DNA from: an uncultured Patescibacteria group bacterium
Lineage (GTDB): Bacteria; Patescibacteriota; Minisyncoccia; Phycocordibacterales; UBA918
NCBI GenBank assembly: GCA_934699595.1
Contig: CAKUWT010000001.1
Span: forward strand, 202,832-266,831
Direction of reading: 5' to 3'
Length of the DNA: 64,000 nucleotides
Shown in pieces: positions 52,030 to 54,738 of this stretch; position 1 is the first letter of the stretch; every line of letters begins with the position of its first letter. The translations under genes were made by a program, and so were the position numbers. The notes under the pieces are model-generated. The model worked only from the letters and a program-made list of their open reading frames with translations, was not told the origin of the DNA and did no database searches.

Positions 52030-54507
52030 TTATTTAATTAAGATTAGCTCCAATAAAGATTTCATTCTTAATAACAACTCTAATAACTGTCTGTAAAGAT
52101 CCATAATATCCGGCAAAACCTCAACGTCTGGTCGGGAAAGACTAACAATATTTTTCTCAGAAGAGGTTTTATAATGGTTACCAGGGTCTTGCACAGTGTC
52201 TATTTTCTCCATAATTATTTTTTCAAACTGATCCTCATCTATCGTATAGGAGTAAGTATCGATAACTCCAGTTGCTGTAGTGCCCCTAATCAAGTCCTCA
52301 GTGCTTCGATTATTAGAATCAAAAATACTCGTATCTAAACTATAAGCACCTTCCCCAGTACCAATAACTTCCAAATAGTATCTACCTGGGAGCAATCCCT
52401 GTATATACATAATTTTAGAAACATCCGTATCAGGCATCGTCGTATTATCAAGATCTGCATAAAAAGGTTTGTCTCCTAAATAATAAACCCCTCCCGGAAT
52501 CTCCCTAAACTCCTCGCCAGTGCGAGGATCCCTGCCTAGACGCCTGCCCTTACTGTCCGTTAACAATAATTCTGCAGGTGAACCCAAAACATGCTGTACC
52601 GTAATCGGCCACTCACCTGACAAATACTCTTCACCACGCTTAAATAAGCGCAATCCGTCAAAACCGCCCTCATAATTCCTGACATCTATGGCACTACTAT
52701 CAGCTAGGGTTCTAGTCCGATACCAGAGCGGGTCACGAACAGTATACTCACCCTCACCTACCTTGCTATCAATCACAAAAAAATGAGTGGCATTCACCCC
52801 TCCGCGTGGGCGCCCGTATGCAGAGCGAGCAATGGCAGGCATCGGTTCCCCGGACTGCAGAGTATTGTCTAGTATTGAATAATCTTCTAATGTTGGTTGG
52901 GAAACTTTTGTAATAATTGAATTATGAGCATCATTGTATTTTATACGCCCTTTAGAGTATCTATCAACCACAGACCAGATCACTAAATTATCTTTAGTGT
53001 AGCCGTCATTACTCAGAAGCCAAGCATCTAAATTGAGAGGGTTGACACTCTTGCCATCGGATCCAGTATCGATCCCCTCATAACGCAGCAACATGACCAG
53101 TGAGGTGATCGCGCAGCCGCACTGTGCAATTGATCTGCCGCAACCACCTTTACTAATATCAAAATCCCGTCCGCCAGCATAATCCTTGTTGGACCACTCC
53201 TCTTCAGCCACCCTCAAAGGAAACTCACTACTCACCTGAGTAAACAATGGCACTACCTTTACCTTAAAATCTGCATTTCCATTACCAAACTTCACCCAGG
53301 CAGAAGCTCCACCATCCTCATCAACTGTTCGGGCTCGCCAAACAAAACTGTCCTCATTACCGCCCGGTTCATACTGATCCGCTTTCGGAATTAGATTATC
53401 AAAGGTGACACTAGCTACCCCATCACCAGTAAACCAGTCTGAATATTTTGTCTCCAAACCATCAAAGCCACTACCTAATTTCTTCACCTCAACCTCCAAC
53501 CGAAGTGCCCGCCCCTCAACACCACCAACCTTCGCCTTTAGTACTACACTGTTACTAGACAAAAGACCGCCGGCAACTATCTCACTTTTCCCAAACTGTC
53601 TAAACTGCCCTAAATTAGTCGGGCTGCTTGTCTCAGTTATAAAATTGCCAAGCGGTTGTTTTCTAGCCAAAACATCAACCAGGTCTTCATTTATTTGGTA
53701 AGTTGCATCACACCATCCATCTCCGTCAGCATCAACACACCCCTCATGATCTTCATCAAAAGATTCCCAATAATTACCACCTTCTGGACTTGGTAATGAA
53801 AATAACGCATTTATTCCCGAACCACCCTCAACAATAGTACTATTAAAAAAGTTATTCTGGGTAAAAATTATCGACCTTTCGTTATCCGCAAGAACACGAC
53901 TTGGGAACCCTAACACTTGTCCCACTTTATTAAATAATGATCCGATCCAGTCACCTAACCACCCTCTCATAGAGACAGTCGGCCCATCAACGTAAGCATT
54001 GGGTAAATGCGCAGCCGTTTCTGCACTATTAAAAGTATTGCCCTTGATCAAATGTTGTTCGGCATTACTGCCTGATTGTATTTTTAGACCAACTCCATAA
54101 TCGGTTCTAATTAAATTATTCAAGACTTTAATATTCTGCGAATCAATTAGCGAGACCCCTTCCCTGGTAATCTTATTCTTAGAAAGAATACTATCTTTAG
54201 CCCAATCAAACTCAACCCCATCCTCAATAATGTTCTGATCAATCAGAATCCCCTCCACCCAAGCGGCAAAAATTGCTCGCGGCCCTTTAACAATATTATT
54301 TTTAATAGTACTTTCAGTGACCTCATTTAAATCTATTCCTATCGCGCCTGCCTGAAGATAACTGTCGCTAGCCTCACTGTAATTAGTCCCATTAAAATAA
54401 ATACCTCCCGGACCAGTTGTTTTAACATTCCTGATGATAACGCCATCGACTTCACGCACCTCAATAGCAATTCGATCAGCGTTAATCATATAACCATTTC
54501 CATCCAA
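52030..54507 (-). CDS. Parallel beta-helix repeat protein with C39-like (papain/transglutaminase-like) cysteine peptidase domain; main body of an interrupted gene
   Basis: N-terminal PbH1-type beta-helix repeats (NNIVKG..., ILIDQNIIEDG..., SKNKITREG...) and a C-terminal block GGCGRSIAQCGCAITSLVMLLRYEG resembling Peptidase_C39-like domains. It begins at a TTG 9 nt after, and in frame with, a TAG that ends the upstream signal-peptide ORF. Confidence 0.5.
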   Translation of the reverse strand: MDGNGYMINADRIAIEVREVDGVIIRNVKTTGPGGIYFNGTNYSEASDSYLQAGAIGIDLNEVTESTIKNNIVKGPRAIFAAWVEGILIDQNIIEDGVEFDWAKDSILSKNKITREGVSLIDSQNIKVLNNLIRTDYGVGLKIQSGSNAEQHLIKGNTFNSAETAAHLPNAYVDGPTVSMRGWLGDWIGSLFNKVGQVLGFPSRVLADNERSIIFTQNNFFNSTIVEGGSGINALFSLPSPEGGNYWESFDEDHEGCVDADGDGWCDATYQINEDLVDVLARKQPLGNFITETSSPTNLGQFRQFGKSEIVAGGLLSSNSVVLKAKVGGVEGRALRLEVEVKKLGSGFDGLETKYSDWFTGDGVASVTFDNLIPKADQYEPGGNEDSFVWRARTVDEDGGASAWVKFGNGNADFKVKVVPLFTQVSSEFPLRVAEEEWSNKDYAGGRDFDISKGGCGRSIAQCGCAITSLVMLLRYEGIDTGSDGKSVNPLNLDAWLLSNDGYTKDNLVIWSVVDRYSKGRIKYNDAHNSIITKVSQPTLEDYSILDNTLQSGEPMPAIARSAYGRPRGGVNATHFFVIDSKVGEGEYTVRDPLWYRTRTLADSSAIDVRNYEGGFDGLRLFKRGEEYLSGEWPITVQHVLGSPAELLLTDSKGRRLGRDPRTGEEFREIPGGVYYLGDKPFYADLDNTTMPDTDVSKIMYIQGLLPGRYYLEVIGTGEGAYSLDTSIFDSNNRSTEDLIRGTTATGVIDTYSYTIDEDQFEKIIMEKIDTVQDPGNHYKTSSEKNIVSLSRPDVEVLPDIMDLYRQLLELLLRMKSLLELILIK

Positions 54508-54516
54508 AGTAAGGCC

Positions 54517-54738
54517 CTATGATAGAATTACCAAATCACCATCAAAATCCCCGGTAAGGAAACATGTCTTACTTAACTCCTCCCAGGCACCAATTTCTTT
54601 GCAACTGTATTCTGAGGCGTAAAGAAAATTAGTAGACGCTGCAATCACGTTTTCGTTAGGAATAAACAGAAAGACCAACAGAAAAATTCCTAAAAGGTAA
54701 CCTGGATTATTTTTTATTCTACCAAAAATAGACACCAT
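54517..54738 (-). pseudogene. Signal-peptide fragment (73 aa) in frame with the downstream 825-aa ORF, separated by one TAG
   Basis: MVSIFGRIKNNPGYLLGIFLLVFLFIPNENVIAAST is a typical signal peptide. Stop TAG at 54517-54519; reading through gives ...DLVILS*GLTLDGNGYMINADR... in frame with 52030..54507. Confidence 0.45.

Follow-up and report, generated by a model that had tools for sequence, protein, structure and literature searches.

A probable recent nonsense allele of an exported beta-helix/cysteine-peptidase gene in an uncultured Patescibacteria group bacterium

An uncultured groundwater-type bacterium of the Patescibacteria group carries a minus-strand gene for an exported beta-helix/cysteine-peptidase protein whose reading frame is closed by one premature TAG just past the export signal. 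The gene lies in the stretch analysed here, a window of 64,000 nucleotides (nt) from contig CAKUWT010000001.1 of assembly GCA_934699595.1 (positions 202,832 to 266,831), in which all coordinates below are given. The likely explanation, in our view, is a nonsense mutation that recently made this accessory gene a loss-of-function allele, null for the extracellular role of its product.

As the first-pass annotation of this DNA had described, and as we confirmed from the sequence, an open reading frame (ORF) of 73 amino acids (aa) ends with TAG at 54517-54519 and is in frame with an 825-aa ORF that opens at a TTG 9 nt further on. Read across the stop, the translation runs ...DLVILS-(TAG)-GLTLDGNGYM.... 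The second ORF is placed differently by different programs, at TTG 54507 (825 aa) by the ORF lister and at ATG 54489 (819 aa; P0001) by public gene callers; both codons, 9 and 27 nt past the TAG, are candidate restart sites. The 828-codon body that follows the TAG contains no second lesion.

The joined 902-aa sequence was searched with phmmer against 1.84 billion representative proteins, which gave 2285 matches at E up to 1e-3. The best of these, P0006, is 987 aa long and 39% identical, and together with 15 further homologues it has a common N-terminal layout in which a signal peptide is followed by C-x3-IG-x-W-x5-TC-x-L..D......I.I..x.ITLDGNGH.I. The TAG occupies position x of this layout, immediately ahead of the first beta-helix rung. 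Alignments to P0026 and P0045 begin at query residues 41-43, within the 73-aa ORF, cross position 74 and end at ~840-865. In the aligned protein homologues the TAG column holds P, S, D or N. We also recovered 68 related loci from contigs of the Joint Genome Institute (JGI) and other metagenomes, using the conserved C-terminal motif SPAELL.TD..GR.LG as the scanning pattern, and in 23 of them a single frame spans the equivalent column (Asp in 10, Asn in 10, Ser in 3). A stop conserved at this position was found in none of the 23 loci or the aligned homologues, all of which have D, N, S or P. Homologues cross the TAG column in one frame, and the 73-aa ORF and the body were therefore once one gene; the alignments establish, at the level of sequence, that both pieces derive from one ancestral gene and that this is not a chance juxtaposition of two ORFs. 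The first-pass annotation had proposed a comparison of orthologues for an intact ORF; no close orthologue with an unbroken gene was found, the nearest homologue standing at ~39% identity. The exhaustive protein search yielded no relatives above that value, and a word-index search gave the gene itself and matches to the immunoglobulin (Ig)-like domain.

The TAG recurs in other assemblies of the locus. The ENA scaffold (L001; ERZ28614527, 399,901 bp) has 0 mismatches to the window over 2871 nt, TAG included, and L002, a contig assembled independently by Logan from run ERR7738460, has the same 80-nt junction with the TAG and is unbroken through the site. The 819-aa downstream product has been called on at least 4 contigs (NCBI, ENA, Logan), a call made because the frame is closed upstream; an open frame could not yield it. 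One-step repair of the TAG gives seven different 902-aa proteins, none of which is on record in an exact look-up among ~15 billion proteins. At 90% identity each window protein checked, RpoC included, forms a singleton, confined to contigs of these three sources.

TAG is an ordinary functional stop in this organism, as had been argued at first pass from its use at the end of rpoC. The 47 window ORFs that reach 150 codons or more are terminated by TAA in 24 cases, by TAG in 20 (43%) and by TGA in 3. The genes ending in TAG include gyrB, those for RNase R and the transketolase C-terminal subunit, and rpoC itself (5924-9592), whose 1222-aa product was identified as RpoC by Pfam. TGA is rare as a stop in this window of ~46% GC, and one of the three TGA-ending frames (23699-24271, plus strand) overlaps other ORFs and is probably no gene. 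A scan of the 64-kb window for same-frame ORF pairs split by one stop gave no second interrupted gene: the 73-aa/828-codon pair is the sole one united as one gene by homology, and the others are distinct adjacent genes or non-coding frames. The pair rpiB/rpe likewise shares a frame with one TAG between them, yet the two are distinct genes by homology.

Signals of recoding or switching were looked for around the site and in the window at large. The region 54300-54800 contains no tandem repeats, so slippage or phase-variation repeats at the site were rejected, and the lesion is a point nonsense codon within non-repetitive sequence. A read-through-stimulating RNA structure was rejected: a 131-nt segment that opens shortly before the TAG and extends past it folds no better than shuffled sequence (z = -0.54). 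The window has no suppressor tRNA, its sole tRNA being tRNA-Thr, and an Rfam search of it returned nothing but a tRNA. Genome-wide recoding of TAG was rejected on stop usage and on the lack of any other interrupted gene in the window.

The features of the locus are collected in Table 1. At the N-terminus we predict a putative Sec-type signal peptide, on computed hydrophobicity and inspection by eye: its core is the most hydrophobic stretch of the protein, with K/R residues before it and VIA/A after it, and the N-termini of homologues look alike. The 73-aa ORF had been said to encode only a signal peptide, a description that proved too narrow. Past the signal (aa ~35-73) it supplies ~38 residues of the mature protein, with the family-conserved cap motif C46-x3-G-x-W...T-C59. 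This disulfide-type cap (Cys46/Cys59) precedes the first beta-helix rung and is present in every beta-helix-bearing homologue examined. The helix itself resembles NosD-like/CASH beta-helix proteins, with Pfam NosD and Beta_helix on aa 92-328 and a '...ITLDGNGH.I' start that is typical of the fold. Unlike in NosD, it forms the N-terminal module of a peptidase, and a NosD orthologue was rejected, as the TIGR04247 score of 46 bits is far below the cut-off of 300 and no nos genes lie nearby; the neighbours of the peptidase gene are pentose-phosphate, ribosomal and kinase genes. The Ig-like domain that follows occurs as tandem repeats in other proteins, and in some homologues it is recognised by Pfam as Ig_Rha78A_N or Big_13.

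Table 1. Features of the interrupted gene and its surroundings (positions in the window)
Feature	Coordinates	Strand	Basis or remark
Intrinsic-terminator-like hairpin, 18 pairs + T-run	54830..54869	-	Ends upstream transketolase operon
TATAAT hexamer, possible -10 element	54773..54778	-	34 nt upstream of ATG; seen by eye in sequence
5' fragment, 73 codons + TAG	54517..54738	-	ATG at 54738; signal peptide + beta-helix cap motif
Putative signal peptide, aa 1 to ~34	within 54517..54738	-	Hydrophobic core aa 12-27, VIA/A
In-frame TAG, codon 74 of the 902-codon ancestral frame	54517..54519	-	Read in sequence
3' remainder, 828 sense codons + TAA (52032-52030)	52030..54516	-	Same frame as 5' fragment
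Right-handed parallel beta-helix	53755..54429	-	Pfam NosD (E 3.8e-11), Beta_helix (E 2.7e-9), aa 104-328
Ig-like/FN3-like domain, aa ~371-495	53254..53628	-	Repeated matches of other proteins to query 371-495
Papain-fold cysteine peptidase domain, aa 490-712	52603..53271	-	Fold and family matches
C-terminal domain, aa ~713-850, + short helical tail	52033..52602	-	Conserved SPAELL.TD..GR.LG motif across family
Partner gene, 367 aa	50924..52027	-	ATG 2 nt past TAA; N-terminal transmembrane helix + predicted beta-propeller

When the PDB was searched by sequence, neither the peptidase domain alone nor its profile gave a match, and a fold search was needed. By fold the domain is papain-like, closest to C39/C39-like peptidases and to pseudomurein endoisopeptidase. 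Peptidase_C39_2 covers aa 539-670 with E 2.2e-4 and 22.3 bits, just below the Pfam cut-off of 24; among 44 aligned homologues, 24 match this family at E up to 0.01 (best 3.1e-10) and 5 match Peptidase_C39. The residues Cys542 (53115-53113), His652 (52785-52783) and Asp669 (52734-52732) are invariant in the 44 sequences and intact here. The architecture given at first pass, a beta-helix joined to a C39-like cysteine peptidase, was therefore upheld at the level of fold and family, while the terms 'transglutaminase-like' and 'effector' are still conjectural. The nearest folds suggest that the product may work outside the cell as an enzyme that cleaves a peptide of the cell surface or cell wall; Peptidase_C39_2 has been listed among the catalytic domains of phage endolysins.

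The likeness to characterised peptidases has limits. Compared with the Peptidase_C39_2 family (PF13529) and the C39 bacteriocin-processing enzymes (PCAT1; 3erv, 'putative C39-like peptidase'), the present domain scores 22.3 against 24 bits, sits in a Sec-exported multi-domain protein, and has its Cys within C-G-C, preceded by a further conserved Cys; the protein has neither the ABC-transporter fusion nor the double-glycine substrate context of the bacteriocin-processing peptidases. From the pseudomurein endoisopeptidases PeiR, PeiW and PeiP, which are cell-wall-cleaving cysteine peptidases, it differs in having 16% identity, no sequence-level match and other flanking domains. Literature searches on C39, beta-helix proteins and the Candidate Phyla Radiation (CPR), and on the sample and run, returned nothing on this protein family.

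Directly downstream of the peptidase gene lies a partner gene, whose product is 38% identical (E 1e-71) to that of the gene right after P0006 and homologous to those of the genes after P0010 and P0026. Judged by homology and gene order, the peptidase-family gene and the partner form a conserved two-gene cassette, with the peptidase gene first. We found this cassette in the window (50924-54738, minus strand), in L004, L007 and L008/L009, and in 50 of the loci L011-L078. The N-terminal module of the peptidase gene varies between loci; the partner, ~340-380 aa long, encodes a predicted beta-propeller with an N-terminal membrane anchor and has no Pfam match. At four loci that were read closely, the two genes lie apart or overlap by no more than ~11 nt. 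The partner is duplicated at L033, L040 and L053-L055, and none of the 50 loci that carry it has a disrupted copy. Named partner homologues all belong to Patescibacteria (CPR), namely Candidatus Giovannonibacteria, Wolfebacteria, Portnoybacteria, Parcubacteria and 'Patescibacteria group', and many of the loci were recovered from groundwater filtrates of Rifle and Hainich.

Independent natural disruptions are seen in several other members of the peptidase family. In L007 (P0010), a 1-nt frameshift (4840-4850) ~45 codons upstream of the TAG-equivalent site detaches the signal peptide and N-terminal domain. L012 (P0018) has an in-frame TAG (position 1764) within the beta-helix, directly followed by ATG; in L015, which is 68% identical to L012, no stop or frameshift was seen. 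L051 and L059 carry different 1-nt insertions (C4 to C5 and GG to GGG, respectively), whereas L050 and L052, 99.9%-identical contigs from other samples, have the gene unbroken, from which it follows that null alleles segregate in natural populations; this suggests either that the gene can be dispensed with or that selection on it fluctuates. L069 is frameshifted near its 3' end (relative position 0.87), and L078 is a heavily degraded copy. L020 has an in-frame TGA (position 1901, relative 0.72) aligned to Gly in two queries, which could be a nonsense allele or mark the contig as one from a lineage in which TGA stands for Gly (genetic code 25). In L011 an in-frame TAA, followed by GTC, separates two parts that may belong to one gene. 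The lesions differ in type and position, and there is therefore no conserved programmed site or split architecture. Three apparent regularities among the disruptions were considered and dropped. Clustering in the 5' third was ruled out by a fuller tblastn survey, which added L020 at 0.72, L069 at 0.87 and the degraded L078. That in-frame stops are directly followed by start codons holds for L012 (TAG ATG) but not for L011 (TAA GTC). Lesions were counted in ~5-7 of 68 loci for the larger gene and in 0 of 50 for the partner, a difference that is not significant after length scaling: by a rough estimate ~2 partner lesions were expected, and the probability of seeing none is ~0.1.

The explanation that we favour, and hold to be likely, is a recent nonsense mutation. 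The intact gene would have encoded a ~902-aa Sec-exported protein composed of a signal peptide, Cys cap, NosD-like beta-helix, Ig-like domain, Cys-His-Asp peptidase and C-terminal domain. One base substitution would have made codon 74 a TAG, probably by way of TCG (Ser) to TAG, the only one-step change from the residues seen in the relatives' loci (D/N/S). Ribosomes would then release a 73-aa peptide consisting of the signal peptide and cap, and the 828-codon body would be left untranslated or be translated after re-initiation at the TTG or the ATG. A re-initiated product would be without the export signal and the cap, and the extracellular function would therefore be lost. That the 2.5-kb body is free of further lesions, with its catalytic triad preserved, is the reason for regarding the mutation as recent. 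Several points weigh against this account. The open 828-codon frame would be expected just as much if a re-initiated product were still under selection, and Shine-Dalgarno-like motifs are nearly absent from the window (ahead of 1 of 41 gene starts), so that re-initiation without one is not implausible. Low-level read-through would be compatible with the sequence. With the nearest relative at ~39% identity there is no direct orthologue. Finally, the assemblies that carry the TAG are probably from one project and possibly from one read set.

That last point is the opening for a sequencing or assembly error, or for a minority variant raised to consensus in a population whose true gene is the intact 902-codon one. 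The contigs seem to have a single project as their source, so that reads may be common to the assemblies, and metagenome-assembled genomes are population consensuses; even so, two assembly pipelines agree on the base, the Logan contig is unbroken at the site, and none of the seven repaired proteins is on record. Short-read consensus, moreover, seldom carries substitution errors, and we regard this explanation as very unlikely. A functional split has a small chance of being correct. Under it, termination at the TAG and restart at TTG 54507 or ATG 54489 would give a non-exported 819-825-aa protein, with the coupled partner expressed and the body under selection. The lesion-free frame with its Cys-His-Asp triad, the nearby start codons in a genome so poor in Shine-Dalgarno sites that internal restart needs no special site, the TAG ATG of L012 and the invariably intact partner are all in keeping with it. 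However, the restarted product would be deprived of the signal peptide and of the cap common to all beta-helix-bearing homologues examined, a protein built for the cell exterior would remain cytoplasmic, the relatives' lesions vary in kind and position with no conserved split, and the intact frame is equally predicted by a recent mutation. Programmed read-through, TAG suppression or phase variation, which would yield a small full-length secreted fraction or on/off switching, is likewise very unlikely. The interruption does fall exactly between the export signal and the body, and the family shows repeated natural disruptions, including the second in-frame TAG of L012; against this, TAG ends 43% of the long ORFs, essential genes among them, the window offers no suppressor tRNA, stimulatory RNA structure or slippage repeat, one gene in 64 kb is interrupted, and relatives are broken elsewhere by frameshifts, TAA or TGA rather than at a conserved TAG, with a sense codon at this column in 23 of 23 loci. 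The first-pass annotation had left three options side by side; the pseudogene is favoured by the evidence, with one ancestral gene shown, the sequencing error is made unlikely by the TAG in the ENA and Logan assemblies, and read-through or phase variation finds no signal. A further and quite improbable reading departs from simple decay. Nulls of the cassette gene would arise and persist repeatedly since shutting off export is sometimes advantageous, for example if hosts or phages recognise the protein. The peptidase module and propeller partner would then still be selected, and a re-initiated cytoplasmic product or low-level read-through would be possible.

Seen as a recent nonsense allele, the locus resembles an ordinary single-nonsense bacterial pseudogene in having one in-frame standard stop, an intact homology-supported frame, no recoding signals and intact relatives. 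It differs in that the gene lies in a streamlined, Shine-Dalgarno-poor genome with Patescibacteria relatives, where downstream restart is conceivable, and in having no close orthologue. In annotations, a single gene, flagged as disrupted, should replace the separate 73-aa and 819-aa calls. The stop-codon anomaly is itself ordinary, and the uncharacterised cassette is the more interesting by-product: its first gene belongs to a large uncharacterised family (the 2285 representatives counted above) of exported proteins that combine a papain-fold peptidase with an Ig-like and a C-terminal domain, and in many cases with an N-terminal beta-helix. Cell-surface enzymes of this kind are candidates for how small episymbiotic bacteria interact with host cells.

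Upstream of the cassette, the pentose-phosphate cluster (54903-58033, minus strand) comprises rpiB, rpe and the N- and C-terminal halves of transketolase as separate overlapping genes. The hairpin at 54830-54869 ends this transketolase operon, and the cassette is therefore a separate transcription unit. The TATAAT hexamer ahead of the peptidase gene was not flagged by a promoter scan, which requires a -35 box. Elsewhere in the window, a 972-aa ORF (30441-33359, minus strand) amid housekeeping genes has no Pfam match at E up to 1e-5. Compared with the remainder of the window, the stretch over the peptidase gene (52001-54000) is slightly poorer in GC (0.427) and has a more negative GC skew (-0.29). 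TATAAT/TATACT-like boxes stand ~10-20 nt ahead of many window ATGs (e.g. 24211, 47553-48911, 55892-56791 and 59311-60519), and the closeness of these boxes to the start codons suggests leaderless or very short-leader mRNAs.

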